Part shown: positions 1-55,105 of the stretch, piece after piece | How the letters are laid out: every line of letters starts with the position of its first letter | How positions within the stretch are numbered: position 1 is the first letter of the stretch | Source: Patescibacteria group bacterium | Lineage (GTDB): Bacteria > Patescibacteriota > Minisyncoccia > Phycocordibacterales > UBA9973 | Assembly: GCA_040390725.1 (NCBI GenBank) | Contig: JAZJXT010000001.1 | Location: forward strand, 6,896 to 70,895 | Direction of reading: 5' to 3' | Length of the DNA stretch: 64,000 bases | The notes under the pieces: generated by a model | What the model was told of the DNA's origin: nothing | Databases searched by the model: none | What the model saw: the letters and a program-made list of their open reading frames with translations, nothing else | Made by a program: the position numbers and the translations under genes

Positions 1-53
1 AAAAAAGTATTTTTTAGCAATATTTTGCAAAGTTTATTAGTATTGCGTTAATC

Positions 54-134
54 TTGACATTAATTGGGGTTTTCGTCTGTGGATAACTTTGCTTGCCAAA
101 TGCCTGAGGGGGGGGGGTATTATATAGATGTCGG
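54..134 (+). promoter_or_regulatory. Conserved upstream element (copy 1): TTGACA...TGTGGATAACT...CTTGCC-N19 (includes G10 run 108-117)-TATTAT; a second copy lies at 33675-33750.
   Basis: The G10 homopolymer lies between the -35-like cttgcc and the -10-like tattat. An approximately 80-bp alignment with 33675-33750 shares tgtggataact, cttgcY, G10 and tattatataNatgtcg. Confidence 0.45.
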
Positions 135-164: not shown

Positions 165-791
165 ATGGGTAAAGGAATGGAGAAAGGATATCATGCGGAT
201 TTAAATGAAAGAACAGAAAAAGTACAGGCAAAAATAAGAGCTGGTGGGGACGAGGCGCTTAGTGCTCAATCTGAACTTGGCAAAATTCAAAATGAAGCCA
301 ATGAAAACCTTATGGGCGAAGCATCGCTGGAGCTAAAAGATAGAGAAGAAAGAGAAAATGTTATATCTGAACTTACTGAAAAATATGGTTGGGAAAAATC
401 CGGGGAAAAATCCGAATCACTCAGTAAATTACTTAAATACGGAGGTGAGGAAGCTAAAATATTAGGGAATAGATGGAGTGCCGCCTACAATCGTTTTTTT
501 AATGATAGTGGGGGAAATAAAAATTTTGTTGATAATTTTAAATTAAAAACCCCTGAAGCTAGGCAGTACGAAAGAGAACATTATAATCAAGCTTTTAATA
601 GTTTTAATCTTTCTAATTATGATTGTAAATTTCTTTATAATAGATTTATGAATCAGCTAACAATGGAAGAGCTAAAACTTTTAGAGAAAATAGCAGAAAT
701 AAAAGATGTTTTTTTTGAAGGACATGTGGGTGAAGATTGTCGCTTAAGAATTGATCTTTCTACTCCTAAATATGAAACTTCGGCAGATTAA
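165..791 (+). CDS. hypothetical protein (208 aa)
   Basis: ORF with an ATG start downstream of the G10 promoter element. No recognisable domain. Confidence 0.55.
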   Translation: MGKGMEKGYHADLNERTEKVQAKIRAGGDEALSAQSELGKIQNEANENLMGEASLELKDREERENVISELTEKYGWEKSGEKSESLSKLLKYGGEEAKILGNRWSAAYNRFFNDSGGNKNFVDNFKLKTPEARQYEREHYNQAFNSFNLSNYDCKFLYNRFMNQLTMEELKLLEKIAEIKDVFFEGHVGEDCRLRIDLSTPKYETSAD

Positions 792-840
792 TTTCTATTG
801 ATTTTTGCCGGACGTCCAACGTCCGGCAATTTTTGGTTTA

Positions 841-873
841 CTTAAAATAGAGTGATCGCAGAAATTTAAGTTT
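841..873. repeat. 33-bp dispersed repeat ttacttaaaaYagagYgatcgcagaaaWttaagtt (copy 1)
   Basis: A near-identical copy lies at 6834-6866. Both sit just 3' of hypothetical genes. Confidence 0.6.
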
Positions 874-900
874 TGCAAAGTTTATTAGTCTTGCTATAAT
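873..900 (+). promoter_or_regulatory. Sigma70-like promoter TTGCAA-N16-TATAAT. The start codon is 6 nt downstream, so the mRNA is probably leaderless.
   Basis: ttgcaa 873-878 and tataat 895-900, with ATG at 907. A degenerate copy of the same module lies at 26-53. Confidence 0.4.
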
Positions 901-3467: not shown

Positions 3468-3497
3468 CCCGATGTCGGACATATGTCCGACATCGGG
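3468..3497. repeat. Perfect 30-bp palindrome cccgatgtcggacat|atgtccgacatcggg (family copy 1)
   Basis: Read directly from the sequence. Further copies lie at 16448-16488 (full) and 41707-41726 (one arm). No U-tract follows. Confidence 0.8.
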
Positions 3498-3505
3498 ACA
3501 AATTT

Positions 3506-3898
3506 ATGACAACAGAAGAAACAAAAATAAAAAAAGTGAAAACAGCAAAGGCAAAGTCTTCTTCTAAAAAAGAAAAGACTGGCGATGAGGGAGCAGTTGT
3601 TCTTCGCATCAGAGTTCGTGCTTACGAGAGCAAGATCTTGGATGCGTCGGTAAAGCAAATCATCGACACGGCTATGCGTTATGATGCAAAGATTGTAGGA
3701 CCAGTACCTCTTCCGACTGAGATAAAAAAATACACGGTGAACCGCGCTTCTTTTATTTACAAAAATGCGCGAGAACAATTCGAAATGCGAATACACAAAA
3801 GAGTTATCGACATTTTGAATCCCGGAGCAAAGACAATCGAGGCGCTTACCAATTTATCTTTACCTTCCGGTGTTGATATTGACGTAAAGATGCTATAA
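3506..3898 (+). CDS. rpsJ: 30S ribosomal protein S10 (N-terminal Lys-rich extension)
   Basis: LRIRVRAYE...GPVPLPT...REQFEMRIHKRVIDI matches the S10 core. Confidence 0.92.
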   Translation: MTTEETKIKKVKTAKAKSSSKKEKTGDEGAVVLRIRVRAYESKILDASVKQIIDTAMRYDAKIVGPVPLPTEIKKYTVNRASFIYKNAREQFEMRIHKRVIDILNPGAKTIEALTNLSLPSGVDIDVKML

Positions 3899-4533: not shown

Positions 4534-5193
4534 ATGGAAGCAAAAATATACAATCAGAAAGGGGTAGAAGCAGGGAAGATAACTCTTCCGGCAAAAGTTT
4601 TTTCCGCAAAATGGCGCGCTGACTTGGTGCACCAAGTTGTAGAAGGAATGCGTTCAAACAAGCGCGCTGGCACAGCTGACACAAAAGGACGCGGTGAAGT
4701 TCGTGGAGGAGGCAAGAAGCCTTGGAAACAAAAAGGTACAGGACGCGCTCGTCACGGATCTTCTCGTTCACCTATCTGGGTGGGTGGAGGTGTCACACAC
4801 GGTCCTTTGGCTGAGAAAAATTACAAGAGAAAAATCACTCGCAGTATGCGCGCGCAAGCATTGTTCTCAGTGCTTTCCAAGAAATTCAAAGACGGCGAAA
4901 TTATTTTTGTTGATACTCTGGCACCATCTGACATTAAGACAAAAACAGCTTTGGAAACAATGAAGAATTTATCAAAAGCAACAGGCGCAAAGCCATTGGC
5001 AAATTCAAAGAAGCCTAGAGTTTTGGTGGCATTGGGAGGACGCAGTGAAAAGACTGAAAAAAGTTACCGCAATTTGCCTCAGCTCGAAATAGCTTTTCTT
5101 AAAAATATAAACCCGTTAGACGTTTTGAATTATCAATATCTTTTAATCGAGAATCCGGAAGAATCCGTAAAGTTTTTGGAGGCCCGCGGTTAA
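4534..5193 (+). CDS. rplD: 50S ribosomal protein L4
   Basis: Position in the S10 operon plus an L4-like sequence (KPWKQKGTGRARHGS). Confidence 0.9.
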   Translation: MEAKIYNQKGVEAGKITLPAKVFSAKWRADLVHQVVEGMRSNKRAGTADTKGRGEVRGGGKKPWKQKGTGRARHGSSRSPIWVGGGVTHGPLAEKNYKRKITRSMRAQALFSVLSKKFKDGEIIFVDTLAPSDIKTKTALETMKNLSKATGAKPLANSKKPRVLVALGGRSEKTEKSYRNLPQLEIAFLKNINPLDVLNYQYLLIENPEESVKFLEARG

Positions 5194-5502: not shown

Positions 5503-6351
5503 ATGAAAACATACAAACCTACAAGTAAATCAAGAAGACAAATGACCAACGTCACTTATCGTGGTGTTCTGACAAAAACAGAACCTACGAAATCTTTGAC
5601 GCACGGTTTCCGCCGATCAGTCGGACGCAATAGCCAAGGACGCATTACCACTCGCCACAAAGGTGCAGGACACAAGCGTTTGTATCGCGATGTTGATTTC
5701 TTATACGATAAAAAAGATATTCCTGCGAAGATAACATCCGTAGAATACGATCCAAACCGTTCCGCATTCATCGGACTCGCTGTTTATGCTGATGGTGAAA
5801 AGAGATATGTAGTTCTTCCTAAGTCAGTAAGACCTGGAGACAAATTTCTAGTTTCCGAAAAAGCAGAAGTTTCCACAGCAAACAGATTACCTTTGAAAAA
5901 TATTCCTGTCGGTACTTTTGTTTACAATGTTGAGATAAAGCCTCGCGGTGGAGCAAAGATAGGCCGTTCAGCGGGAATCTTCGCGCAAGTTGTGGCAAAT
6001 GCTGACGGTTATACAAACTTGAAAATGCCTTCTACTGAAGTTCGCAAAGTTTCTGAGAATTGTTGGGCATGCGTAGGTACAGTTTCAAACGAAGAACATC
6101 ATTTGGAAAATTACGGTAAAGCGGGACGTTCTCGATGGAAAGGTATTCGTCCGACAGTTCGTGGTACTGCTATGAACCCTGTGGATCACCCATACGGAGG
6201 AGGTGAAGGCCGACAAGGACGCGGAACAAAGCGACCAAAAACAATGTGGGGTAAAGTTACCGGAGGACGCAAGACCAGAACTCCAAAGAAATATTCAAAC
6301 GTATTCATCGTCTCTCGCCGAAAGACAGGCAAGTCTCGAAAATCTCAATAA
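5503..6351 (+). CDS. rplB: 50S ribosomal protein L2
   Basis: HKGAGHKRLYR and GTAMNPVDHPYGGGEG motifs. Confidence 0.95.
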   Translation: MKTYKPTSKSRRQMTNVTYRGVLTKTEPTKSLTHGFRRSVGRNSQGRITTRHKGAGHKRLYRDVDFLYDKKDIPAKITSVEYDPNRSAFIGLAVYADGEKRYVVLPKSVRPGDKFLVSEKAEVSTANRLPLKNIPVGTFVYNVEIKPRGGAKIGRSAGIFAQVVANADGYTNLKMPSTEVRKVSENCWACVGTVSNEEHHLENYGKAGRSRWKGIRPTVRGTAMNPVDHPYGGGEGRQGRGTKRPKTMWGKVTGGRKTRTPKKYSNVFIVSRRKTGKSRKSQ

Positions 6352-6383: not shown

Positions 6384-6444
6384 GTTAACTATATTTTATT
6401 TATTGCCTATTGCAAAAGATTATATAAAATAATATAATTGAAAG

Positions 6445-7159: not shown

Positions 7160-7915
7160 ATGGAAACACAGAAAAATATAGTGATAATAGGCGGTGGAGT
7201 GATGGGCGAATGTATCGCTTCAGCTATTTTGAGTGCAAAAAATAATTGGAAGGTTGGTGTTATTGGAAGAAATGACAATAAAACAAAAATTCAAAATGCG
7301 GACGTGATTATTTTAGCTGTAAAGCCTCAGTCATTTTTAGAATTGGCAAAAGAAATAAAAGGGTTCGTGCCGAAGAATGCTTTATGTATTTCTGTGATGG
7401 TAGGTATAACTTTGGCGAGTATCAAAAAAGAATTGGGAGTTGAGAGGGTTATCCGCTCAATGCCGAACTTGGGCGCGCGGATTTTAGAATCAATGACCGT
7501 CTGGACTGGGACAAAAAATTTAACAAAAATAGATAAAACTTTTGCCGAGGAACTTTTTTCACTATTAGGGAAAAATGTTTATGTGAAAAATGAAGATATG
7601 GTGGACAAGGCTACAGCAGTAAACGGCAGTGGTCCGGGTTTTATGTTTTCATTTATTGAAAGTTACATCGAGGGTGCAGTAAAGCTCGGTTTTTCTAAAA
7701 AAGACGCGACCATTTTTGCTAAGCAAGTTTTGAAAGCTACAAATACTTTATTGCAAGAAAAAAATACAGATGTAAAAACTTTGCGCGAACAAGTGACTTC
7801 AAAAGGAGGCACGACAGAAGCAGGATTAAAAATATTAATGGATAAATCTTTTAAAAATAAAATTTCCGGTGCTTTAGAAAAAGCATATAAACGTGCGAAA
7901 GAATTATCAAAATAA
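7160..7915 (+). CDS. proC: pyrroline-5-carboxylate reductase
   Basis: N-terminal Rossmann GGGVMG, AVKPQ, and C-terminal VTSKGGTTEAGL motif. Confidence 0.85.
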   Translation: METQKNIVIIGGGVMGECIASAILSAKNNWKVGVIGRNDNKTKIQNADVIILAVKPQSFLELAKEIKGFVPKNALCISVMVGITLASIKKELGVERVIRSMPNLGARILESMTVWTGTKNLTKIDKTFAEELFSLLGKNVYVKNEDMVDKATAVNGSGPGFMFSFIESYIEGAVKLGFSKKDATIFAKQVLKATNTLLQEKNTDVKTLREQVTSKGGTTEAGLKILMDKSFKNKISGALEKAYKRAKELSK

Positions 7916-16447: not shown

Positions 16448-16488
16448 CCCGATGTCGGACATATGGAAACCATATGTCCGACATCGGG
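16448..16488. repeat. Palindrome family copy 2: 19-bp arms cccgatgtcggacatatgg / ccatatgtccgacatcggg with loop aaa
   Basis: Read directly from the sequence, between rplN and rplX. Confidence 0.8.
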
Positions 16489-16503
16489 ACAAAAGAAAAA
16501 CAT

Positions 16504-16809
16504 ATGAAATTAAAAAAAGGAGACAATATAATAATCATCACAGGAAAAGACAAAGGCAAGAAAGGTAAAATTACCAAAGTTTTTCCTGATTTAAACAAAG
16601 TCGTAGTAGAAGGCGCAAATACAATGAAGAAGCACCAACGTCCTAGAAAGTCCGGCGAAAAAGGCCAGATGGTTTCCATTTCTATGCCGATGCATGCTTC
16701 CAATGTAATGATTGCAGATCCAAAATCAGGCAAGCCTTCCAAGATCGGCAAGAAAAAAGTAGGCGATAAAATGGTCAGAATCGCCCGAAAAAGTAAACAA
16801 GAAATTTAA
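16504..16809 (+). CDS. rplX: 50S ribosomal protein L24
   Basis: MKLKKGDNIIIITGKDKGKKGKITKV. The ORF-track start at 16474 lies inside the palindrome; the true ATG is 16504. Confidence 0.88.
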   Translation: MKLKKGDNIIIITGKDKGKKGKITKVFPDLNKVVVEGANTMKKHQRPRKSGEKGQMVSISMPMHASNVMIADPKSGKPSKIGKKKVGDKMVRIARKSKQEI

Positions 16810-19362: not shown

Positions 19363-19375
19363 TTTGTTTTATTGT

Positions 19376-19449
19376 CCGCCCTCTTGGATTCGAACCAAGG
19401 ACCCCAGAGGTATAAGCTCTGTGCTCTAACCAACTGAGCTAAGGGCGGA
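19376..19449 (-). tRNA. tRNA with anticodon loop CUUAUAC (anticodon UAU, Ile-type)
   Basis: Folded by hand into a cloverleaf: acceptor CCGCCCT/AGGGCGG, D arm GCTC-AGTTGGTTA-GAGC, anticodon stem CAGAG/CTCTG, T arm CTTGG-TTCGAAT-CCAAG. No CCA is encoded. Confidence 0.7.
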
Positions 19450-19450
19450 T

Positions 19451-19530
19451 ATTTACTTATCGCCTAACCAAAACAGTTAAAAACGGATTACTTACTTATC
19501 GCCTAACCAAAACAGCTAAGGGTGGATTAC
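19451..19530. repeat. Tandem 39-bp repeat x2 (ttacttatcgcctaaccaaaacag + 15-nt variable part). The second unit ends with ctaagggtggattac, a diverged copy of the tRNA 5'-end flank.
   Basis: Read directly from the sequence, immediately upstream of the tRNA. Confidence 0.6.
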
Positions 19531-19640
19531 TAATTTTTTAACTATATAGAATATAATAGTTTATGCGACATTTTGCAAGCTATTCAATTTAAGAAATTCC
19601 TCTTTTCCCTTTGAAACTTTCTCGGTGAGTGATACAATAT

Positions 19641-22600
19641 ATGTATATGAAGCTGGGAGTGAGTAGCACCAAGTTTAAATTTTTTGCAATTTTTGCTGTT
19701 GCTTTTTTTTGTTTCTTTTTTTCTGCGCATAGCGCGAGCGCTACGGCGAAGTTTGCCGTAGCTTCTGGAAACTGGAGCGCTACTTCTGGCGTTTGGGCGC
19801 TTACATCTTGCGCGACTGGCGCCGGAAATAATGTGCCGACTAGTAGTGATGCAGTGACTATTTGTAATGGAGTTACAGTTACAGTGGACGGTGCTGACGT
19901 TGCTTCTAGTATTACGGTTAATGCACCTACCACCGCAAATGGAATTACAATTAGCGGAACGAATACTCTCACTGTTACAAATGCGATTACCATGAATGCT
20001 CCGACGGCGGGAGTAAATGATACAATCGCTGTCGGCGCTGGGACTCTTTCTTCCGTAGGTATTACTATTAATGGAGGAGGTTCTTCAGGGTTTAATTCAA
20101 TTTTAAGTTTAAGTACGGGAACTATTACAACTACGGGTGGAATATCTTTTGGTGGTACAGTTGCTCAAGCACAATTGACGACGACCGACGTGGCGACGAT
20201 AAATCTGACTGGTACGATTTCTTCCGGCGGGACTCTCAGTATAAATTCCGGTACGCTTTTGAAAGCCACAGGTAGCAGTACTATAAACATTAGTAGCTCT
20301 TCTACTAATTGGGGCAAGGTTCAAGTTAATACGGGTACTCTCGGGTTGGGTGCTGCATTTACTGTGGCGACAGGTTTGCAAATTGATTCCGGCGCAACCT
20401 TGTCAGCAGGAGCAAATCTTGTAACTGATAAATGTGCGAGTACGGGATTGTCAGGGTTTACTATTAACGGAACATTATCCGGATCTGGCGGAGTAACTTT
20501 AGATACGGCGAGTTGTACTTTGGATGGTACCGGGTCAGTGACGAATACTGGCACATTTACTATGACAAATGATAAAACTATAGCTGGGACTGCGAGTTTG
20601 ACTGTGGGGGGCAGTGCTAGCGCTTCTACAATTTCTGCAGGTACAACAATAACAAATAATGGAACTTTTATTTTTGCAGGCACAGGGGCAGTGACGGGTG
20701 GTAATGCCACGACTACTATTTGGATTAACGCAGCGAATTCAACTTTGAAAATAGCAGGTACTGCTTTTTTGGCAACAGGAGTTTTAACAGCGACAGCGAG
20801 TGGTAATACTGTGGACTATAATAATAGTGCAGGGGTAGCAACAACACAAACACTTTTTAATACCACTTATTATAATTTTAATTTCGGAGGTACTAGCACG
20901 AAAGCTCTTCCTGCCGGCGGTATACAAGTTACTAATACTCTTTCTGTCAGTTCCGGTATTACGGCTACACTTAGTACTGGTGATTTTTTGACTACTAATT
21001 TAACTGTGACGGGCAGTGGAATATTTACTGGTACTGGTAGGACTATAACAATGAACGGAAATGGCGTTGGTACAGCAGGTAGATGGTTACATACTACAGG
21101 GGCAGGACAAATACGAACTAATTTAACTTTTAACTCGGCGGGAAATATTACTTTAGGAGATGGCACTACGGGATCAGCGGGTACAGTATTATGGGGGAAT
21201 TTTGGTTCTACTTTAACATGGACTGCTGGTACCATGATAACTACAAACTCTACATTAAATTTACATATGGATAATGCCCCTACAATATCTACAAATGGAA
21301 TGAAGTGGAACAATGTAACCTTGCTTAATACTGGTGGTGGAACACTTACATTGGGAAGTGACTTAGATATCGGGGGTAATTTAACTTGGCCTACTACTTC
21401 TACTGCGACTACTTTTGTCGGGGCAAATCGTATTATTACGTTACAAGGTAATTTAGTGATGGGAACTTCTTCTGCTGCAACTAACGCAGTGGCATCCGGA
21501 GCTTCTACTCAGACTATAAAAATGAATGCTAGTTCCGGTGCTCAAACTTGGTCAGGTCAACAAGCAATATCTGCAATCAGATTAACAGTAATACAGACAG
21601 GTTCGGCTTCATTCGCAATTAGCGGTACAGTGACACTTGCCACTACTGGATTTACTATTACTAGTGTTGGTTCTGGAGGATTTTCAGCAGCCGGAAGTAC
21701 CTTAAATTCATATAACAATGTTATTTTTAATACGAGTGGTTCAACATACCCCCTCTATAATGTGACTACTTGGGATGGTGGCAATACTATTCCTTTGAGT
21801 AGTAACTTATATATGACGGGAAATCTCGTTATGAATGGTAATACAAATGGTAGTAATGCTACTACTACATGGACTGGTCCATATTCAGTTACTGTTGGTG
21901 GTAACTTAACGCAAAGTTCAACTTCACTTAATATTACTGGTTCCACTAGCGGTGGTAATGTATTTCTTGGAATTATTATGAATGGCACTGGTACTTGGTC
22001 TAATGCTGCAGGTGCAACGAGCGTGATGACGGTGCCTTTGACATTTAATACTTCTGGTACGATTACTATCGGTAGTAGTGTGTATTATAGTACGGGAACT
22101 TTGTTGTATACTTTAGGCACAATTGATACATCTGCAAATAGTTCGACACTTAACATCGCAGGCTCGGCAACTTTAAATACTCCTACGGCAAGTATGAGTT
22201 GGTATAATTTAAACCAATCTACTACGGGAACTTTAACCTTGACGAGTGCAATAACCATTTCAAATACTCTTTCTGTCGCAAGTGGAGTGACTGAAACTAT
22301 TGCAACCAGTAATATAACAACAGTCAATTTAACCGTAACTAATACTGGTGTATTTTCTGGTAATGGAAGAACGATAACAGTAAGTGGAAGGTGGAGTCAC
22401 ACACAAGCCGGCTCAGGGAAAATAAGGTGCAATATAACTTTAACAAGCACTGCAACAATATCAGGAACAGTGTATTTTACAGGTGATAGTTTTCCAGTAA
22501 CATTAACAGGCGCAAGTGGAGTCACTACAACTGGAAGTATATTGGATATTGATGCTAGTGTCACATTAAATACTTCTACGATGTCATTCCAAGATATAAC

Positions 22601-25600
22601 CCATGTTGGTTCTATCGGAACGTTAACTCTTACAAGTGACTTAAACATAAATGGAAATTGGACAATGTTAGCAGGGGCAGCTGGTCTCGCAGGTGCAAAT
22701 ACAAATATATATTTAAAAGGTAATCTTAATATGGCTGCATCTGGTAGTGTTCAAGGACTTAGTACTCAAATATTATATATGAATGCAAGTTCTGGTACAC
22801 AGACTTGGTCTGGCGCACAAACTTGGAAATTTACAAAATTTATTGTCATTCAAACTGGGACAGCAGCATTTACAATGTCAGGCAGTCTCGCTCTTGATGG
22901 TGGCACATTCACTTTTACCTCTGTTGGAAGTGGAGGATTTACTAACACATCTACTGTCACAATGCTTGCCTCTTCAGGAAATATTTCATTAAGTTCCGCT
23001 AGTTCTTCTTATTCATTTAATAATGTGACAATGACTCTTTCAGCAAATAACATAACACTTCTAACAGATATTTATATTCTTGGAAATTTGGCTATAAATG
23101 GAACTGCCTCAACTCCAACAATAGGAGCATTCACCCTTTATGTAGCTGGTAATCTTTCTCAAGGTGGAACATCAACTAATGTTACCGGTACCGTAGGAAT
23201 TGTAATGAATGGATCGGGAACTTGGAGTAATACCGTAGGTGCAACGAGTGTGATGCAGGTGCCTTTGACATTTAATACCTCGGGGACGATAACACTTTCC
23301 GGAAACCTATACTATAGTACCGGAACTTTGACATACACAGCAGGCACATTATCTCCTGGCAGTTCTACTTTGAATATTCCGGCGAATACTACTTTTGCCG
23401 GAGGAATGAGTGGTAGTAATGCATTTAATAATATTGCAGTGTCAGCAGGAACTTTGACGAATAATGCGACGGCTGGTACGACAGGTTTAGCCATCACAGG
23501 AAATCTTACCGGCGCCGGGGCATTAACTCAAGGAACTAATTCTATTTTAACTTTAGGTGGAACTTCGACAATTACAACTTTGACGGCAAACACAACAGGG
23601 AATACTGTAATTTATAATGGTACGGCGGGGCAGACGGTAAAAGTACCCGCGAGTTCTACTTATATGAATTTAACTATTAACGATAGTGGACAAACAGCGA
23701 CTCTTGGCGGAGCTATTACTGTGAGTGGGAATTTAGCAATCAATACTGGAACACTGGATGATAATGGAACACAGATTACAGGTAATGCTACAAATAATTT
23801 AACGATGGCATCAGGTACGACTTTGAAAATTGGTATTGCCGGTACGGCGACGACTTTTCCTACGCTTTACACGACAGGACATACGACATTAAATTCTGCT
23901 TCGACCGTCATATATAATGCAGGAGTAACTCAAACTATTTCGTCGACGCCTGCTTATGGCAATTTGCAACTCTCTCGCGCATCCGGTACCCCGACGAAAT
24001 CTTTGAATGGTACAACGACAATAAATGGATCTTTGACTATTGACGCGAGCAATACGCTCTCTGCCGGAGCAAATCAAATAGCGCTCGGCGGAAATTATTC
24101 TAACAGTGGAACATTCACTGCAGGTACTGGAACATTTTTATTATCTGGGTCAGTGGCGCAAACTTTGTCGGGGACGATGACTAGCGGTTCGGCATTTTAC
24201 GATCTAACAATTACGAATTCTTCCGGTGCTTCAGCTAGTGATTGTGGACTCACAGGATTCACTGCTGGAATTATTTTCGGAGGATCAGCGACATCAACAC
24301 ATAACTATGTTATTACTACTGCTAATGTGCGAGTGACTTATAATGCCGGGTCAACTTATACTTTTGCAAATATAAATTGGAGCGGACAAGCCAGCGGAAC
24401 AAAAATTTATTTTAGGTCTTCGAGTGCAGGGTCCGCTTGGAATTTAAATGTTTCCGGCACACAGACTGCGGTGTCATATATAGATGTGTCTGATTCGGAT
24501 GCTCACACAGGAAGCTCTATAAATAGTGATACTACTGTGACCGATTGTAATAATAATACAAATTGGGTTTTTATTATGACGATTTCTGGTACGGCAAATG
24601 GTAATGATGGGGGCACAGTAAAGGTTGCTTTTAATAATTCTATTGATGCACACACTACTACTATTTCGGGTGGAGCTTGGACTATCAGTAATATTACGAA
24701 GCCAGCTGCGGGAGTTATTGTGACTGTTTTTGTTGATGGTGCTACTCTTGATTCAAATGAAACTACCGCTATTACAAAATACAGTTCAGGTGTTATTTCC
24801 GGTATGGTTTTGAATACAAATGTTTTAACAATTGGAAGTAATCAAAATACAAGTTTGACTACGACTAACCTCGGTCAATATACTTCTAGTAATGACGAAG
24901 ACGTAATGCAATCAGTTTCCAGCGGAGCATTATCAGTGCAGGGAACAAGTAATACATATGTAAATCCAATTCTTGCTGTTCTTAATAATAATACTCTTAC
25001 TGTAGATAGCGCTTCTACTGAAAGCATAACGACTGGTCAGTTGTATATATATGGTAGCGCTACTTTGACTGCTACCGGTACGCCGACTATTACTTTGAAT
25101 GGAACTTCCGGAACATTATTTACAAACTCAGGTACATTTACTCCAGCAACTTCTACTGTTACGCTTTCTGGCAATGGAGATGCTACTATAAATTCCGGAG
25201 CGATAACATTTTACAATTTAACTTCAAGCGGGACGGGAGTGAAAAGTGTAGATGCTTCTTCTGCATTAACATTTGCAACTTCTGGAACACTGACAGTTTC
25301 TGGGGGGACTTTTGATCCGGTGACAGCTCTCGTCGCAAGTGGTTCAAATACTTTAACTGCTTCGGCTGTACTTCGTGTTGAAGCATCTACTTTTGCCGGA
25401 TCGTATCCTGCAGGTTTCGGCACTTTGAATTTAAATTCCGGTTCTACTGTTGATTATCATTCCAGTGGAGCGCAAACAATTTCCAGCACAATTTCACCAT
25501 ATTATAATTTAACAACTTCGACAGGTGGGACAAAAACTTTAGGAGGTAATGTGACTATTTCAAATGTTTTAACAATCGGTGCTAGCTCAACACTTTCTGC

Positions 25601-28600
25601 AAGTTCTAATAATATTACATTATCAGGAACTACGGGAACACCTTTTATAGATTCTGGAACATTTTCTTCCGGCACGGGGACAGTTTCTTATACTGGAAAT
25701 AATGGTTCGGGAAATACTACGGTCTTGCCGGAAACTTATCACGATTTAACTTTAAATAATGCGAGTGAGACTTATGTATTAGGCGGAGCTACGACCATAA
25801 ATAATTTATTAACTATTACCGACGGAACACTCGATACTGATAGCACGAATCATTACAACTTTTCTACGAGTGATATTTTGATTGACACATCCGGCACGCT
25901 TTTGGGACGTGCTTCAAATATTACAGTCACAGAAAACTGGGTAAATACTGGGACATTTACCCGAGGCACTTCTACGGTGTTATTGAACGGAGACATTACG
26001 GATAACATAGCTGGAGATACTAATTTTAATAATTTAACTATTTCTAGCACTGTCGCAAAAACTGTTTACTTTACGACTACTGGCACTACTAGTGTTTATG
26101 GCATTTTTACTGTGACAGGGCATAATAGCCAGTTAATAAGTTTACTTCCAGAGCTTGCTCACCCAACAACTCAATTTCCTTTTCGGGTAATATCGCCTGG
26201 TACAGCTAGTATTAGTTATATAAATGTTTCTTATGGAGGATGCGCGGCTACCGCTATAAATATGTCACCCGTTAATTCTGTTGATGGTGGAAATAATGAC
26301 ACTTGTTGGTCTTTTGGAATTGCGATTTCCGGAACAGCAAATGGCAATGATGGAGAGACTGTAAAAATTGCAATCAATGGCACGGCGGATAGTCACACTA
26401 CTACGATATCGAGCGGAGCGTGGTCCTTTACAACTATTACTCAACCATCTTCCGGTGATATTGTTACTGTTTGGGTTGAAGGTGCTTCTGCTCCAAATAA
26501 AACAACTGCTATCACAAAATATTCTTCTGGCTCAGTTTCTGGAATGGTTTTGGATACAAATACACTGACTGTCGGGGATGCAGGTGGAGTGAGTTTGGCT
26601 GTTTCTGATTTTTCACATTATACTTCTGCTGATGACAGTTATGTGATGCATTCATATTCGAGCGGAGATTTGTCAGTGGCAGGGACTAATCCGACTTTGA
26701 AAATTTTATCTGGAAATACTTTAACTGCTTCTACTGGAGAAAGTGTAACAACAGGGAAAATTGATAATGCTGGCACTATTACTGTTACAGCTTCCAACAC
26801 TCCGAGTTTTACTTTGAACGGAACTTCGGGAACTTTGTTTACTAACTCTGGCACATTTACACCGGCGAGTTCTACGGTCACACTTTCCGGTAATGGCGAT
26901 GCGACTGTGAATTCCGGCGCTATTACTTTTTACAATTTAACAAATTCTGGCACGGGAGTGAAATCTTTGGGTGATGCGAATATTACTGTGAACCACAACA
27001 TGACAGTTTCTGGCGGTACTTTTGATCCGACTGCTTCTCGTACTATTACAGGGTCCGGCACAAATACTCTGGCTGTTTCTAGTGGAGCTACTATTCGCGC
27101 GGAGCATTCTTTATTTTCCGGTGATTGGATTTCTTTTGAAATTACGACTTTGAGTTCCGGCTCGACGGTGGATTATTATTTAAATAATGCTCAAACTATA
27201 GACAACACTCTTTCATATTCTAATTTAAATTTATCAAATAGTGGTACGAAAACTTTGGGAGGGGACACAACCATTGCAAATGTTTTGACTGTCGGCAGTA
27301 GTGCGACTCTTGATGGTAGCTCACATACTTTGACTCTTTCTGGGGCAACCGGTACGCCGTTTGTAGATTCTGGTACATTTACTTCCAGCACGGGAACTGT
27401 TTCTTATACGGGGAATTATGCGAGCGGTAATACGACGGTCTTGCCGGAAACTTACCACAATTTAACTTTAAATAATGCAAGCGAGACTTATGTTTTGAAT
27501 GGAACGACGCCAATAAATAATTTATTGACTATCACCGCAGGTACACTCGACACTGTCAGTCATAATTTTTCTACAAGTGATATCACCATTGGCGCTTCCG
27601 GCATGCTTAATGCAAATGCTTCCATTGCAACTGTCACAGAAAATTGGACAAACAATGGCACATTTAATTCTGGTACTTCTACCGTGTTGATGAATGGTGA
27701 TAATGCTCACGATCTAGTCGCTGGGACTACGAGTTTTTATAATCTTACTATCACCACTACCACTCCAAGCGTTGCCAAGGAAGTGGATTTTCCATCTACC
27801 ACTACCACAGTGATGAATGCTTTTAATGTTACAGGACATGGAGGCGCATTGATTAGTTTGTACTCTACGCCTTCTCCGACCAAGTGGAATTTTTATCCGA
27901 TGTTGGGTACTAACAATAGCGTGCGTTATGCAAAAATAAAAGATGGAGGCTGCGCTAATAATGCTATTGCTATTCGCCCGGCTAATTCCGTGGACGATGG
28001 CAACAATGATTCCTGTTGGGTTTTTTCTCCTTATGTTTACAAGCTCACAAATGCCAACACAGTAGAAGTTTACAATGATACAAATACTTCCAATCCTTCT
28101 CCGGTAAAAACTATTCAATTTTCAGATGACTATGCTTTGCCTACAAATAGTTTAGTAAAGCTAACAAGCTTGGCAGTCGATACTCACTTCAACAGACTTT
28201 ATGTGACGACAGATGATCCATCAGCTGGTCTGAAAGTTGTCGATATTAGTAATCCTTCTCCTTCCAGTTGGGTATGTTGTGCTAGTACTGTAGTTCTCTC
28301 TGATAATAGTGTGAATTTCCCCGGGCGTGATGTATATGTAGACAGTGCTGGTGTGCCTACAGTGTTGGGAGCTACGAGTTCCAAGGGCGGAATTTTTGTA
28401 ATAAATCCAAGCACTCTCGGTATTGCTTATTCAAATGTTCATAATGTTTCCGATCCTTCAGATGTCGCTCTCATTGTTCATGAACATGCCGGAATATATG
28501 ACAACACTGCTACCGGATTTATTTATGAATCAAATTATCACACATCACAACTTTATATTTATCCTTATAGCAATGTGACTCCGAGCGTAATCAGAGAAAC

Positions 28601-28994
28601 TACAAATGATATTTCGTCTTACGGTAAACCCACTGCTATTTCAGTGCATAGTATCAGTAATGGAAATACTTATTTTATGTTAGCCAATAATTCCCAAGTC
28701 GTGCATTTCTTCCCGGTTGATTATTCCACATCAAGTATTGCGGATTTAGTTTCTGCGCATGATTCTTCTTCGGTCGGTACAAATGTGATAAATGATTTGG
28801 CTTCGGCTTTGAATGATTATTTATATATCGCAGGAGGAACCGGGATTTATAAAATAGGTATTCCGTCTTCATCGCCTGCTTCTTCGTTTTATGTATTAGC
28901 GGATGGTTTTTCAAGTGTTGCGCAGGCTTCCGCCTCCGGACTCATCTTTGGCGTATCAAATGGAAATAGTACATTGTATCCTTTTACTCCATAA
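19641..28994 (+). CDS. Giant secreted repetitive surface protein (about 3,118 aa), a putative adhesin with a C-terminal LVIVD-like beta-propeller region
   Basis: Signal peptide MKLGVSS...FSAHSASA, Thr/Gly/Ser/Asn-rich beta-helix-like repeats, large internal duplications, and C-terminal LKVVDISNPSP-type motifs. The ORF-track start at 19629 is a GTG; ATG 19641 or 19647 is more likely. Confidence 0.85.
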   Translation: MYMKLGVSSTKFKFFAIFAVAFFCFFFSAHSASATAKFAVASGNWSATSGVWALTSCATGAGNNVPTSSDAVTICNGVTVTVDGADVASSITVNAPTTANGITISGTNTLTVTNAITMNAPTAGVNDTIAVGAGTLSSVGITINGGGSSGFNSILSLSTGTITTTGGISFGGTVAQAQLTTTDVATINLTGTISSGGTLSINSGTLLKATGSSTINISSSSTNWGKVQVNTGTLGLGAAFTVATGLQIDSGATLSAGANLVTDKCASTGLSGFTINGTLSGSGGVTLDTASCTLDGTGSVTNTGTFTMTNDKTIAGTASLTVGGSASASTISAGTTITNNGTFIFAGTGAVTGGNATTTIWINAANSTLKIAGTAFLATGVLTATASGNTVDYNNSAGVATTQTLFNTTYYNFNFGGTSTKALPAGGIQVTNTLSVSSGITATLSTGDFLTTNLTVTGSGIFTGTGRTITMNGNGVGTAGRWLHTTGAGQIRTNLTFNSAGNITLGDGTTGSAGTVLWGNFGSTLTWTAGTMITTNSTLNLHMDNAPTISTNGMKWNNVTLLNTGGGTLTLGSDLDIGGNLTWPTTSTATTFVGANRIITLQGNLVMGTSSAATNAVASGASTQTIKMNASSGAQTWSGQQAISAIRLTVIQTGSASFAISGTVTLATTGFTITSVGSGGFSAAGSTLNSYNNVIFNTSGSTYPLYNVTTWDGGNTIPLSSNLYMTGNLVMNGNTNGSNATTTWTGPYSVTVGGNLTQSSTSLNITGSTSGGNVFLGIIMNGTGTWSNAAGATSVMTVPLTFNTSGTITIGSSVYYSTGTLLYTLGTIDTSANSSTLNIAGSATLNTPTASMSWYNLNQSTTGTLTLTSAITISNTLSVASGVTETIATSNITTVNLTVTNTGVFSGNGRTITVSGRWSHTQAGSGKIRCNITLTSTATISGTVYFTGDSFPVTLTGASGVTTTGSILDIDASVTLNTSTMSFQDITHVGSIGTLTLTSDLNINGNWTMLAGAAGLAGANTNIYLKGNLNMAASGSVQGLSTQILYMNASSGTQTWSGAQTWKFTKFIVIQTGTAAFTMSGSLALDGGTFTFTSVGSGGFTNTSTVTMLASSGNISLSSASSSYSFNNVTMTLSANNITLLTDIYILGNLAINGTASTPTIGAFTLYVAGNLSQGGTSTNVTGTVGIVMNGSGTWSNTVGATSVMQVPLTFNTSGTITLSGNLYYSTGTLTYTAGTLSPGSSTLNIPANTTFAGGMSGSNAFNNIAVSAGTLTNNATAGTTGLAITGNLTGAGALTQGTNSILTLGGTSTITTLTANTTGNTVIYNGTAGQTVKVPASSTYMNLTINDSGQTATLGGAITVSGNLAINTGTLDDNGTQITGNATNNLTMASGTTLKIGIAGTATTFPTLYTTGHTTLNSASTVIYNAGVTQTISSTPAYGNLQLSRASGTPTKSLNGTTTINGSLTIDASNTLSAGANQIALGGNYSNSGTFTAGTGTFLLSGSVAQTLSGTMTSGSAFYDLTITNSSGASASDCGLTGFTAGIIFGGSATSTHNYVITTANVRVTYNAGSTYTFANINWSGQASGTKIYFRSSSAGSAWNLNVSGTQTAVSYIDVSDSDAHTGSSINSDTTVTDCNNNTNWVFIMTISGTANGNDGGTVKVAFNNSIDAHTTTISGGAWTISNITKPAAGVIVTVFVDGATLDSNETTAITKYSSGVISGMVLNTNVLTIGSNQNTSLTTTNLGQYTSSNDEDVMQSVSSGALSVQGTSNTYVNPILAVLNNNTLTVDSASTESITTGQLYIYGSATLTATGTPTITLNGTSGTLFTNSGTFTPATSTVTLSGNGDATINSGAITFYNLTSSGTGVKSVDASSALTFATSGTLTVSGGTFDPVTALVASGSNTLTASAVLRVEASTFAGSYPAGFGTLNLNSGSTVDYHSSGAQTISSTISPYYNLTTSTGGTKTLGGNVTISNVLTIGASSTLSASSNNITLSGTTGTPFIDSGTFSSGTGTVSYTGNNGSGNTTVLPETYHDLTLNNASETYVLGGATTINNLLTITDGTLDTDSTNHYNFSTSDILIDTSGTLLGRASNITVTENWVNTGTFTRGTSTVLLNGDITDNIAGDTNFNNLTISSTVAKTVYFTTTGTTSVYGIFTVTGHNSQLISLLPELAHPTTQFPFRVISPGTASISYINVSYGGCAATAINMSPVNSVDGGNNDTCWSFGIAISGTANGNDGETVKIAINGTADSHTTTISSGAWSFTTITQPSSGDIVTVWVEGASAPNKTTAITKYSSGSVSGMVLDTNTLTVGDAGGVSLAVSDFSHYTSADDSYVMHSYSSGDLSVAGTNPTLKILSGNTLTASTGESVTTGKIDNAGTITVTASNTPSFTLNGTSGTLFTNSGTFTPASSTVTLSGNGDATVNSGAITFYNLTNSGTGVKSLGDANITVNHNMTVSGGTFDPTASRTITGSGTNTLAVSSGATIRAEHSLFSGDWISFEITTLSSGSTVDYYLNNAQTIDNTLSYSNLNLSNSGTKTLGGDTTIANVLTVGSSATLDGSSHTLTLSGATGTPFVDSGTFTSSTGTVSYTGNYASGNTTVLPETYHNLTLNNASETYVLNGTTPINNLLTITAGTLDTVSHNFSTSDITIGASGMLNANASIATVTENWTNNGTFNSGTSTVLMNGDNAHDLVAGTTSFYNLTITTTTPSVAKEVDFPSTTTTVMNAFNVTGHGGALISLYSTPSPTKWNFYPMLGTNNSVRYAKIKDGGCANNAIAIRPANSVDDGNNDSCWVFSPYVYKLTNANTVEVYNDTNTSNPSPVKTIQFSDDYALPTNSLVKLTSLAVDTHFNRLYVTTDDPSAGLKVVDISNPSPSSWVCCASTVVLSDNSVNFPGRDVYVDSAGVPTVLGATSSKGGIFVINPSTLGIAYSNVHNVSDPSDVALIVHEHAGIYDNTATGFIYESNYHTSQLYIYPYSNVTPSVIRETTNDISSYGKPTAISVHSISNGNTYFMLANNSQVVHFFPVDYSTSSIADLVSAHDSSSVGTNVINDLASALNDYLYIAGGTGIYKIGIPSSSPASSFYVLADGFSSVAQASASGLIFGVSNGNSTLYPFTP
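20890..23450 (+). repeat. Intragenic tandem duplication, 2 x roughly 1.28 kb (protein-level repeats of about 430 aa)
   Basis: Paired blocks, for example TNTLSVSSGITATLSTGDFLTTNLTVTGSGIFTGTGRTIT versus SNTLSVASGVTETIATSNITTVNLTVTNTGVFSGNGRTIT, and TWSNAAGATSVMTVPLTFNTSGTIT versus TWSNTVGATSVMQVPLTFNTSGTIT. Boundaries are approximate. Confidence 0.5.
24570..28030 (+). repeat. Intragenic tandem duplication, 2 x roughly 1.73 kb (roughly 80-85% nucleotide identity by eye)
   Basis: ISGTANGNDGGTVKVAFNNSIDAHTTTISGGAW... matches AISGTANGNDGETVKIAINGTADSHTTTISSGAW... Both units end in NSVDGGNNDTCW and NSVDDGNNDSCW. Confidence 0.6.
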
Positions 28995-33147: not shown

Positions 33148-33191
33148 TATTTTGAGTTTGCATTTTACTTAAAAATTGGTACAATATAAAT

Positions 33192-33626: not shown

Positions 33627-33674
33627 TAACTTTTTTTGAGTTTTGCTTAAAAATTGAATATATGTTCAAAAAAC

Positions 33675-33750
33675 TAGACATTTTTATGTGTGGATAACTG
33701 CACTTGCTAAAAGGCTACGGGGGGGGGGTATTATATATATGTCGTTTACC
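33675..33750 (+). promoter_or_regulatory. Conserved upstream element (copy 2) with G10 run 33719-33728 between -35-like cttgct and -10-like tattat
   Basis: Aligns with 54-134. The spacer is 19 nt in both copies. Confidence 0.45.
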
Positions 33751-33773
33751 AGTAGCTTAATTTTAATTAATAT

Positions 33774-34478
33774 ATGAAAGAAGGATTACCAAAGGCAGTA
33801 GAAAATAGTGGGGTAGAATCAAAAGGAATAAAAGGTTTTTTGGGGGATATAAAAGAATTAGGTAGAAAAGGATTGCTTGCCATTGGAACAGTGGTCGCAT
33901 TTACGGCACTTTTTTCTTCAGATGCATCTGCTCAGACAATTGAAAAAGAAGTTAGGCAATATCTTCCAGAGAATCCAGTTCTATTAAAGGCATCTGAGGT
34001 GCAGGCTATTAGAACCGTAGCTAGCGGGGATGCATTTTTAGATCATTTAAAAAAAAGTGGAGCAAAATTTACTACAGAAAAGACGAAATCAGGTGTTTCA
34101 GCAATGAAGTCAGGAGATGTTTCTTATATTTCGCTTTCCGAAGATCACGCAATCTTGGAATTACATAAAGATACCAGTGAAAATTCTGATAACTTTATGC
34201 TAGCTAAATTAGGGGAACATCATCACGTTGTTAGTGGGAAACATGGAGATACCACTGAAATTTTTAATGCAACATTTGATCCACATGCAGACGGTGACGG
34301 GGTTTTAACATTTACTCATTTAGTTAAGATTGGAGACAAGCTCGTGAGTGATGTACAAATAACTAATCCACTTAATGTTGAACTAGTAGAATATACTTCA
34401 CTTTTATCTAAAATTGAGGCTGATATTGCAGAAAGAGAAGCGAAACTTTCTAAGTCTCAATCCGGCGTAAAAAAATAA
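33774..34478 (+). CDS. hypothetical secreted/membrane protein (234 aa)
   Basis: ORF with an N-terminal hydrophobic segment. Confidence 0.5.
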   Translation: MKEGLPKAVENSGVESKGIKGFLGDIKELGRKGLLAIGTVVAFTALFSSDASAQTIEKEVRQYLPENPVLLKASEVQAIRTVASGDAFLDHLKKSGAKFTTEKTKSGVSAMKSGDVSYISLSEDHAILELHKDTSENSDNFMLAKLGEHHHVVSGKHGDTTEIFNATFDPHADGDGVLTFTHLVKIGDKLVSDVQITNPLNVELVEYTSLLSKIEADIAEREAKLSKSQSGVKK

Positions 34479-49444: not shown

Positions 49445-49529
49445 TTTAAAACTGCGGAAGCGGTGAGATTCGAACTCACGGTCCGGTTAGGGACGACGGT
49501 TTAGTAAACCGTTGATTTAAGCCACTCAT
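49445..49529 (-). tRNA. type II (long variable arm) Ser-like tRNA; anticodon loop reads UUACUAA (anticodon ACU if canonical)
   Basis: Folded by hand: acceptor GGAAGCG/CGCTTCC, discriminator G, 3-bp D stem, anticodon stem ACGGT/ACCGT, 16-nt variable arm, T arm GTGAG-TTCGAAT-CTCAC. No CCA is encoded. Confidence 0.65.
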
Positions 49530-49934
49530 CCACGCTTCCAATATACAGTTGTCAGGATTCCGCGGATGAGTGGCTCTCTCGCTTTGCTCGCGGGTGAAAG
49601 CAAAGTAGTTTGCTTTCACCCCATCTCATCCACGCTTCCAATACTTAATTTTTTTCGGATTTTTAAACTTAAAAATCCGATTGCGGGACACTCGAGTTAA
49701 GTACCCACGCGTTCAACTACCGTAAGGGTATTCTAGCATATTTTATGGTGGCAAAACTAGGCACTCGGGTCGCTAGGCGGTTTTTCAAAATGAGACAAAT
49801 GAGACACTAAATGTGTTTTTTGTGTTTGTGTCTCATTTTTGTCTAGGCAAAAACTTACCCACTTAATTATTTGACTATAATATCTTTTATTTGTTATCAT
49901 TAAACTATTATAATTTTAAAAAAAGTTAATAATC

Positions 49935-53611: not shown

Positions 53612-55105
53612 ATGAAAGAATGGGCGCCACAGCTTAAATACCGAAAGGAAGACACAGAACCAAAGCCTAACTTCGGCGTGCTAGCTTCCCCGGAGGGGGG
53701 GGCAACAATAAAGAATTTGAAGGAGAAAAATGAAGCGCTGGAAGCTCTTATTAAGGAAGCTATTGTGAAACTTATACCCATACTTGAAAAACATAATCCT
53801 GATAAATTTGGTACTGGATTTATTACTAAATACTTAAGGTATAATTATAATAAGCTAGTAAAAAATCTTCCTGGGAATAAGGAAAATAAAACGGACTGGA
53901 TGCCATTTGACAGTCAGTTGCCAAAGAAATGGCAAGAAAGGTTTTATCTTCCGGAAAAAAGGTTAAAATTTTTTGCGGCTAAAATTGTTTCAATTTTAGA
54001 AAAAGAAAAGCCAGAATTTTTTACTCCGGGTTCAATAAAAAAAATGGATCCAAGTATCTATATGATATTGACACAGATGCTACCGAGGGATGAAGAAGAT
54101 AATATTGACTATAAACCCTTTGAAGAAGAATTACCGGAGGAATGGAAAAACAAATTTGAATATGGGAATATTTCTTTTCCGTATGTTGTCTTGAAATTTG
54201 TTTTATTACTTGAAAAAGAAAAACCTGAAGAGTTTAATGTGACTTATATAAGAGATTACGCACCTGACATTTATGGCATGCTAGATCGGATTTTGCCAAA
54301 AAATCAAAAAGGTGAGCCTGATTGGTTATACTTTAAAAGCCAATTGCCGGAAAAATGGCAAGAAAGGTTTACATATGAGGAAAAAAAACGTTTATCTTTC
54401 GAAGAATGTGTTTCAAAAGTAGTTGAAAAGTTAAACGAAAAAAAGCCGGAGCAATTTGGACCTATTTGGATTAAAGAAAATTGCGGGGATATTGTATATA
54501 ATGAACTGCGTAGAATTTTACCAAGAAAGGATAACCAAGATGACCAAATTGATTGGCAACCCTTTCTTGATAAGTTACCTAAGGAGTGGCTAGCAAAGTG
54601 GAAACATAAAAAAGATCCATATTACAAGCATCTAAAAGAGTTCCCGAGTAAGAAAGAATTAAGGCAGATATTATTAAAATACAAAAATTATGGAGATGCA
54701 CATGAAAATAAACTTTATGTTTTGCCTTATTATCCGAATCTTTCAAAAGATGACAGGATAATTGCCAATAAAATTGTAGGGGAAATAATAAAGTTGGCAC
54801 AGAAAGGCAGTAGTGCCGCACGAGAAATGCTCGAGTTAGACTTAAATTTTGTCTGTGAGGAATGGATACAAAAATACCCCGGATACCCTTTTGAATTGAA
54901 GCCGTGGAAGGATAAACCGGAACAGTTAAAGAAACTTATACGGGGCTGTATTTATAATTATCAGAATAAGGGATCATTCTTTTCATACTTGTTTACGGCT
55001 TTAAAAATGGGCAGACCAACTTCAATTAAAATGGTAGAATTTGATGAGGGCTACATGAAAAAATTAAATGATTCAATGATGGAAGGGTTTGAGGATCAGT
55101 TATAA
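53612..55105 (+). CDS. hypothetical protein with 3.5 tandem roughly 70-aa repeats (DWxPFxxxLPxxWxxxF...LEKEKPExF)
   Basis: The repeats are visible in the translation. A G8 homopolymer lies at 53695-53702 near the 5' end. Confidence 0.6.
   Translation: MKEWAPQLKYRKEDTEPKPNFGVLASPEGGATIKNLKEKNEALEALIKEAIVKLIPILEKHNPDKFGTGFITKYLRYNYNKLVKNLPGNKENKTDWMPFDSQLPKKWQERFYLPEKRLKFFAAKIVSILEKEKPEFFTPGSIKKMDPSIYMILTQMLPRDEEDNIDYKPFEEELPEEWKNKFEYGNISFPYVVLKFVLLLEKEKPEEFNVTYIRDYAPDIYGMLDRILPKNQKGEPDWLYFKSQLPEKWQERFTYEEKKRLSFEECVSKVVEKLNEKKPEQFGPIWIKENCGDIVYNELRRILPRKDNQDDQIDWQPFLDKLPKEWLAKWKHKKDPYYKHLKEFPSKKELRQILLKYKNYGDAHENKLYVLPYYPNLSKDDRIIANKIVGEIIKLAQKGSSAAREMLELDLNFVCEEWIQKYPGYPFELKPWKDKPEQLKKLIRGCIYNYQNKGSFFSYLFTALKMGRPTSIKMVEFDEGYMKKLNDSMMEGFEDQL

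Follow-up and report, generated by a model that had tools for sequence, protein, structure and literature searches.

What role does a run of ten G residues play between the -35-like and -10-like hexamers of a promoter-like element in a Patescibacteria (CPR) chromosome, and why does the same arrangement recur, with a run of identical length, in front of an unrelated gene? The Patescibacteria make up a large share of bacterial diversity and are mostly uncultured, with very small genomes and regulation that is almost unexplored. A preliminary description of the 64-kb stretch of chromosome analysed here (hereafter the window) had suggested that slipped-strand loss of G residues shortens an overlong promoter spacer in a phase-variation switch. 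Here, we examined this proposal in the window, whose genes include those for EF-Tu, the S10 ribosomal operon and proline synthesis, as well as a type IV pilus cluster (PilB, PilC and pseudopilins), a histidine kinase, a response regulator and HicBA, and in related sequences from metagenome assemblies and phage contigs.

Two G10 modules in the window

The two G10 runs occupy positions 108-117 and 33719-33728 of the plus strand, 33.6 kb apart, the first of them exactly where it had been placed in the preliminary description. They exceed all other homopolymers, whatever the base, in a window that has 37% GC and in which A runs reach at most 8 nt and T runs at most 9 nt. G runs of at least 7 nt, previously said to be very rare, number exactly four (starting at 108, 33719, 38219 and 53695), and the 64-kb window contains no C run of 6 nt or longer. 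Under a first-order Markov model of the window, 0.03 G runs of at least 10 nt are expected, compared to the 2 observed, and the observed number of G7 windows was reached in none of 100 shuffles, so the tracts are in clear statistical excess.

Each tract is embedded in a 67-nt repeat unit (70-136 and 33681-33747, both on the plus strand, 81% identity), which bears out the earlier claim that the module recurs with the same G10. Allowing up to 3 mismatches, the 56-nt module core matches only these two sites in the window and none in shuffled sequences, while an nhmmer profile built from the family sites described below retrieves both copies (E = 2e-13 for copy 1 and 1.3e-13 for copy 2) and finds no third one in the window. 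The blocks conserved between the copies are TGTGGATAACT, CTTGC, the G10 tract together with TATTATATA, and ATGTCG.

In copy 1, the upstream element TGTGGATAACT (78-88), invariant in both copies and common to the metagenome and phage promoters considered below, is followed by the -35-like hexamer TTGCCA (93-98, with the conserved CTTGC at 92-96), a 19-nt spacer (99-117) whose 3' portion is the G10 tract, and the -10-like hexamer TATTAT (118-123), which the tract directly abuts; judging by this layout, transcription would start at approximately 129-131. Copy 2 has the same order of parts on the same strand, namely TGTGGATAACT at 33689-33699, TTGCTA at 33704-33709, a 19-nt spacer at 33710-33728 and TATTAT at 33729-33734, with a predicted start at approximately 33740-33742. 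The spacer length of 19 nt reported earlier is correct when counted from TTGCCA or TTGCTA to TATTAT, but counting from 'cttgcc', the -35 hexamer as it had been written, gives 20 nt. Such a spacer is unusual in this genome, because the other promoter-like sites in the window (872-900, 2107-2134 and 6410-6438) have spacers of 16-17 nt within an ordinary layout, in which TTGACA or TTGCAA is followed by a -10 box, TATAAT or TAGTAT, that is often preceded by TG.

Four other interpretations of the module were considered and rejected: a sigma-54 promoter, for which the GG-N10-GC spacing is unsuitable; a minus-strand promoter, which would have a perfect TATAAT but neither a -35 box nor a gene to drive; a promoter of a leaderless transcript, with the -10 box just 5' of the downstream ATG, since the positions differ between the copies; and a conserved upstream ORF, since copy 1 would encode MSV* and copy 2 has a 12-codon ORF. 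Rfam covariance models gave no match at 1-200 or 33650-33800.

The 11-bp element TGTGGATAACT, located 3 nt before CTTGC, contains TGTGGATAA, the exact reverse complement of the DnaA-box consensus TTATCCACA. If a 17-nt spacer is assumed, the element would span approximately -50 to -40, centred near -45, and it is a candidate activator site. Within the family it varies to TGTGGATAAGT and TGTGGATATCT, and weaker look-alikes, the family membership of which is not established, are TGTAGATAACT in L011 and GGGGATAACT in L002 and L088. Perfect DnaA-box 9-mers occur twice in the 64 kb versus about 0.8 expected, which is not a significant difference, and promoters of this genome do not in general carry GATAACT upstream. 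The L011 site (7536-7580, in a relative whose PilB is 76% identical to that of the window) reads TGTAGATAACT-N4-TTGCAG-16-TATAAT and lies at a pseudopilin gene upstream of a pilus cluster. It could be a G-tract-free version of the upstream unit of the module with a normal spacer, or the 11-mer, with its one mismatch, could be a chance occurrence.

A promoter family in Patescibacteria and phage contigs

Judging by their shared sequence, both modules belong to a putative promoter family of the form TGTGGATAACT-N3-CTTGC-N(8-11)-G(6-10)-TAnnnT, which we encountered in Uhrbacteria, in a Parcubacteria-like organism, and in Hainich and Rifle groundwater contigs. Metagenomes were scanned for TGTGGATAACT-N3-CTTGC with a run of at least G5 within the next 4-16 nt, and of the 11 loci obtained, at least 10 are promoter-like. 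In 8 of the 11 a TAnnnT hexamer directly abuts the G run, although the pattern did not demand TAnnnT. The nhmmer profile of the family matched 16 distinct sites with E-values of 1e-8 to 1e-16. Among the hosts, L069 and L086 represent Candidatus Uhrbacteria RIFOXYB2_FULL_45_11, the EF-Tu of which is 68% identical to that of the window; L075 is closest to Paceibacteria/Nomurabacteria-type Parcubacteria; and L073, L084 and L085 originate from Hainich groundwater filter fractions.

Tracts of G6, G7 (after GGGGA), G8, G9 and G10 occur in the family. Behind an 11-nt segment 3' of the -35 region, the tract is G9 in L066, L069, L073 and L085 (18-nt spacer), which is the commonest state of the family, G10 in both window copies and in the two L084 modules, L084a and L084b (19 nt), G6 in L065 (15 nt), and GGGGA plus G7 in L071 (21 nt). 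The segment measures 9 nt in L072 and 8 nt in L074, both with G8 (spacers of 15 and 14 nt, respectively), and 0 nt in L064, where a G10 run stands directly 3' of CTTGC and the spacer is 16 nt long. G or C runs of at least 8 nt are confined to the modules in all of the fetched module-bearing loci that were checked. The proteins encoded downstream of the family modules are all mutually different, and homologous promoters stand 5' of non-homologous genes in several genomes, as in a dispersed promoter.

The loci in L067 (14172-14400) and L068 (2602-2830) carry a family promoter with G6 in the middle of a 17-nt spacer. Downstream of the promoter lies a GC-rich, conserved stretch in which no ORF of at least 50 aa starts within about 270 nt and which, from its sequence, looks like a non-coding RNA. 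Rfam detected no RNA family in L064, L065 or L067-L069.

The TGTGGATAACT-N3-CTTGC unit is also present in phage contigs, in 45 stretches, 40 of them unique. In these 40 promoters, TAnnnT is markedly over-represented at distances of 16 nt (4 cases), 17 nt (9) and 18 nt (2) from TTGCnn, against a background of about 1 per offset, and occurs in none at 19 nt; a run of G6 or longer is absent from the spacers of all phage-contig promoters with this unit. The earlier statement that 19 nt is too long gains support here, in that the G-tract-free versions of the promoter have spacers of 16-18 nt and never 19. Searching GenBank phages with the module by blastn gave chance matches only. A strict pattern including TATTATATANATGTCG matched no metagenome (0 matches), so the 3' part of the module appears to be specific to this genome. 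A scan of genome contigs with GGATAACTNNNCTTGCN{12,32}TATTATAT was discarded, as 5 of its 6 matches were due to chance and the remaining one, an Uhrbacteria promoter (L002), is loosely similar.

Proposed spacer mechanism and tract length at sister loci

The reading that we consider probable is that the module is a sigma-70-type promoter in which slippage changes the length of a poly-G spacer. From 5' to 3', it would be made up of TGTGGATAACT, a gap of 3 nt, CTTGCn as the -35 box, a segment about 11 nt long, an uninterrupted poly-G tract and, abutting that tract, TAnnnT as the -10 box. Being a hypermutable simple-sequence repeat, the tract would gain or lose G residues by replication slippage, and each gain or loss would shift the -35/-10 spacing in steps of 1 nt and thereby set promoter strength. 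With an 11-nt segment, G8, G9 and G10 would give spacers of 17, 18 and 19 nt, respectively. Both window promoters are predicted to be weak or off because both copies are at G10 (19 nt), and the loss of one or two G residues would turn on expression of both orphan genes (165-791 and 33774-34478), one deletion leading to 18 nt, the commonest state of the family, and two to 17 nt, the optimum. The return to 17 nt envisaged in the preliminary description is perhaps unnecessary, as the loss of a single G, to 18 nt, may already restore activity. RNA polymerase presumably uses the two hexamers, expression would track tract length, and switching in this organism is expected to be frequent and reversible.

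Since the window organism was found in one sample only, orthologous copies at sister loci were taken from other assemblies. Exact-protein look-ups with both orphan products and EF-Tu gave no match, those with PilB and the aminotransferase led to contigs of a single sample (SRR26324628), and in a Logan assembly of that same sample (L001), the PilB contig matches the window at 100% identity and likewise has G10.

At locus A (Parcubacteria-like), the tract is G8 in L076 and L078 and G9 in L075, L077 and L079. Aligned over 2,978 nt, L075 and L077 each show 0 mismatches to L078 and differ from it by one gap of 1 nt, located in the tract, and the same holds for L076 and L079 over 1,894 nt, although some of these assemblies may be re-assemblies that reuse overlapping data. 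At locus B (Hainich groundwater), where the strains are about 0.5-2% apart, L073 and L085 have G9 and L084 has G10, in contigs with a coverage of only 2-3x, at which a homopolymer error could yield a difference of 1 nt. PCR stutter at G8-G10 is another possible source of length differences in these assemblies. Two of the three loci with G8 or longer are polymorphic in length, and each polymorphic pair straddles an edge of the 16-18-nt range (15|16 at locus A and 18|19 at locus B). The idea of spacer slippage is thus strengthened on two counts, namely that other Patescibacteria carry G6-G10 at the same position of the family promoter and that orthologous copies at sister loci differ in tract length.

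Several observations nevertheless count against a switch. The tracts are equal within each two-module contig (10/10 in the window, 10/10 in L084 and 9/9 in L086), which could reflect a genome-specific fixed length; some spacers fall outside the 16-18-nt range, among them that of L065 (15 nt, with a stable G6 of the same length in 4 assemblies) and that of L074 (14 nt); and the Uhrbacteria G9 locus is constant between two assemblies. The equal lengths and the constant G6 and G9 loci would suit a fixed promoter element, in which the G run is a structural or recognition feature, for instance one that stiffens the spacer or is contacted by a lineage-specific sigma factor or activator, each genome keeps a preferred length, and the 1-nt differences represent neutral drift or technical noise. 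In line with such an element, the run is kept at the same position, abutting the -10 box, across lineages so deeply diverged that their EF-Tu is 68% identical. Recognition should keep the length of the tract, however, yet it ranges from 6 to 10 (12 with the interruption) while the 11-nt segment stays constant; in addition, at locus A the tract is the sole difference in about 3 kb across five assemblies, and the phage versions of the promoter work without any G run. On balance, a fixed element appears unlikely to us, and we retain slippage in the spacer as the preferred explanation.

Chromosomal setting and downstream genes

The genes that would be controlled by the two modules are unrelated, as previously claimed, in that their products have no similarity to each other, and neither the 208-aa nor the 234-aa product gave a match in Pfam and PHROG scans. 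The first gene (165-791, plus strand) encodes a hydrophilic protein of 208 aa (204 aa, with the start at 177, in the version of a public collection) and is closed off as a one-gene unit by an intrinsic-terminator-like hairpin (805-829, plus strand). Its product has three weak, distant homologues (P0131-P0133), and what they have in common is the N-terminal ~55 aa only. This part carries GYxxDLNxxT...KIxxGG, and the C-terminal parts differ from one another, so that the four proteins, by their sequences, have a constant-head, variable-tail layout. The second gene (33774-34478, plus strand) encodes a protein of 234 aa that matches nothing but itself among 5.8 billion proteins and for which a single-sequence AlphaFold model reached a low pLDDT of 39.5. 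Its N-terminus resembles a signal peptide in combining a long N-region with a hydrophobic helix and an ASA|Q motif. The suggestion that the modules control surface or secreted proteins is weak; it fits the N-terminus of the 234-aa product but not the 208-aa product, and the products at the sister loci are mostly hydrophilic orphans.

Module 1, orphan gene 1 and the terminator are bracketed by a 30-nt direct repeat. Its right arm is the promoter of the aminotransferase gene (871-900, plus strand; TTGCAA-17-TATAAT with TG), and its left arm is a decayed duplicate of that promoter (23-52, plus strand; TTGCAA-17-GTTAAT). The arms are identical at 27 of 30 positions, start 848 nt apart, and resemble, at the sequence level, the footprint of an inserted cassette. 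Copy 2 appears to lie in a lineage-specific insertion, because the syntenic histidine kinase-response regulator interval of the closest relative (L009, PilB 83% identical) is without HicBA, the module and the orphan gene. A 22-nt direct repeat (33157-33178 and 33635-33656, 19 of 22 positions identical) surrounds hicB-hicA just upstream of module 2.

Module-bearing loci elsewhere show comparable surroundings. Window copy 1 sits a short way upstream of tuf, and the Uhrbacteria contig L086 has tandem modules, both G9, between fusA and tuf (5000-5051 and 6014-6065), each preceded by a repeated gene end and a terminator hairpin. In L075 (2798-6201), a module, an orphan gene and two MNT/HepT toxin-antitoxin pairs are found between atpA and atpG, where ~99-nt repeats from the atpA-end region flank insertions in the ATP synthase operon. 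L084 carries two modules 1.7 kb apart (1202-1254 and 2911-2964), both G10 and each with a different orphan gene. The single module of L085, from another well (1167-1220), is a hybrid of the left half of L084 module a and the right half of module b, with G9, and L085 is without the 147-aa gene and the RhuM-like gene that are present between the L084 modules.

These arrangements raise the alternative that the module, or its core from CTTGC to the G run, is a recombination site for orphan-gene cassettes and that a promoter role is secondary. Such a junction would account for the L085 hybrid, which is without the intervening 1.7 kb, for the location of copy 2 in a segment missing from the syntenic site of the closest relative, for the 30-nt repeat around copy 1 with its gene and terminator, for the occurrence of modules at gaps of conserved operons beside toxin-antitoxin pairs (fusA-tuf in L086, atpA-atpG in L075), and for the tandem module cassettes in L086. 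However, the DNA fetched shows no recombinase gene adjoining a module, homologous recombination of the ordinary kind between two similar 50-nt modules would explain the L085 hybrid just as well, and the modules face their gene at promoter distance with the -10 box well placed. We judge a cassette junction improbable as the main explanation, and it is compatible with the proposed switch.

Two further alternatives carry very little weight. An ECF-type promoter, with GGATAAC as the -35 and a CGTC-like -10 before the G run, and with a start inside the run leading to reiterative transcription, would fit the ECF-like spacing of GGATAAC-N16-CGTC in L073, L084b and L085 (compared with the ECF consensus as generally known), but is most improbable given that CGTC is not conserved (CTGA and CTAC in the window, TATC, GGTC or GTTC in others), that TAnnnT lies directly 3' of the G run in 8 of the 11 scan loci, and that the phage relatives give a clear CTTGC-16/18-TAnnnT signal. 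Just as implausible is a sequencing or assembly artefact, in the form of two-colour-chemistry poly-G or a homopolymer miscall. Poly-G artefacts do exist, the length of homopolymers is prone to error and the coverage of some sister contigs is 2-3x, but at both window loci, which are 33.6 kb apart, the run is enclosed on either side by unique and conserved sequence, a second assembler gives the same run, and the same architecture recurs in Rifle, Hainich, NCBI Uhrbacteria MAG, JGI, ENA and Logan projects.

Other features of the window

The G8 run at 53695-53702 lies at codon 28 of a 497-aa orphan ORF (53612-55105, plus strand). The reading frame stays open with G8, whereas a tract of G7 or G9 would end the protein at 32 or 40 aa, respectively, and the run is, on sequence grounds, a candidate coding-region contingency tract. 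The neighbours of this ORF are a ParB-N/DNA-methylase gene, a small-terminase-like gene and a GNAT gene.

Rfam matches in the whole window comprise only two tRNAs and a LOOT RNA (RF03000; 52866-52984, minus strand), which is full-length and scores 89 bits versus a gathering score of 46.4. ARAGORN predicts a tRNA-Ser with the unusual anticodon ACT at 49454-49539 (minus strand). The region 19374-19527 comprises a minus-strand tRNA-Ile(TAT) and, after it, two 39-nt repeats in tandem (19450-19527), located upstream of a 3121-aa ORF (19629-28994) that itself has internal repeats spaced about 1.2 kb and 1.7 kb apart. Two sites have an identical 23-mer containing a short hairpin, CATATGTCCGACATCGGGACAAA, which may serve both as a common leader or operator. 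At 3480-3502 it lies just 5' of the S10 gene, whose start codon is at 3506, and at 16471-16493 it spans the start listed for ORF 16474-16809.

Significance and comparison with known systems

Beyond the switch itself, we tentatively suggest, as a possibility that we regard as doubtful, that the module is a portable, horizontally spreading 'contingency promoter' of Patescibacteria and their phages, which travels with orphan-gene cassettes. The unit of about 50 bp would combine a DnaA-box-like activator site, a -35 box, poly-G and a -10 box; its cassettes would be inserted where conserved operons have gaps (fusA-tuf, atpA-atpG, the pilus cluster), frequently next to toxin-antitoxin pairs; and slippage of the poly-G would let episymbionts with tiny genomes toggle accessory genes stochastically. 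If true, CPR would have their first contingency-locus system, with the switch rather than the gene as the conserved and mobile part. Full-text searches found no literature linking Patescibacteria or CPR to repeat-mediated phase variation. A hypermutable poly-G promoter would offer cheap, regulator-free variation, across the population, of accessory genes that might serve host attachment or phage defence. The signature TGTGGATAACT-N3-CTTGC-N(8-11)-Gn-TAnnnT would allow contingency genes to be catalogued from metagenomes already available and switching to be quantified directly in read pile-ups, with no need for cultivation, while the upstream element shared with phage contigs provides a lead on promoter recognition in CPR and on virus-host links.

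Homopolymers in promoters are an established means of phase variation. Neisseria opc has a poly-C tract in its promoter and the same type of switch, in Bordetella pertussis fim2 and fim3 poly-C lies between the BvgA activator site and the -10 box, and the Mycoplasma hyorhinis vlp promoters have a poly-A spacer. As in the module, an upstream protein-binding region, a homopolymer and a -10 box are reused in fim2/fim3 and vlp at several loci per genome, and tract length sets the geometry. The genes downstream are, however, paralogues in those systems (fimbrial subunits and Vlp lipoproteins), whereas the module genes are mutually unrelated.

In terms of layout, a direct counterpart is Neisseria meningitidis porA, in which poly-G lies between the -35 and -10 boxes and expression is high with 11G, 2-fold reduced with 10G and 13-fold reduced with 9G (PMC3639595). 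Like porA, the module has a G tract of about 9-11 nt inside the -35/-10 spacer, and its lengths also differ between near-identical sequences. The two differ in that the module belongs to uncultivated groundwater-type Patescibacteria, and porA to a host-adapted pathogen; in that the tract of the module abuts the -10 box; and in that the whole module promoter, including the 11-bp element, is conserved before unrelated orphan genes in deeply diverged lineages. Graded expression is a measured property of porA and a predicted one of the module.

Highly similar promoters before non-homologous genes, within a genome and across taxa, have been described as putative mobile promoters (PMC3488235). The module family resembles them in having a similar promoter sequence upstream of non-homologous genes, and differs in being common to Patescibacteria and phage contigs, with cellular copies that carry a poly-G spacer. 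To our knowledge, none of the mobile promoters has been described as carrying a hypermutable tract. Judging from the sequence comparisons, the reused and conserved unit in the family is the putative promoter and not the gene. Compared to these systems, the mechanism of a homopolymer in a promoter spacer is known, while the phylum and a promoter module common to unrelated genes are new.
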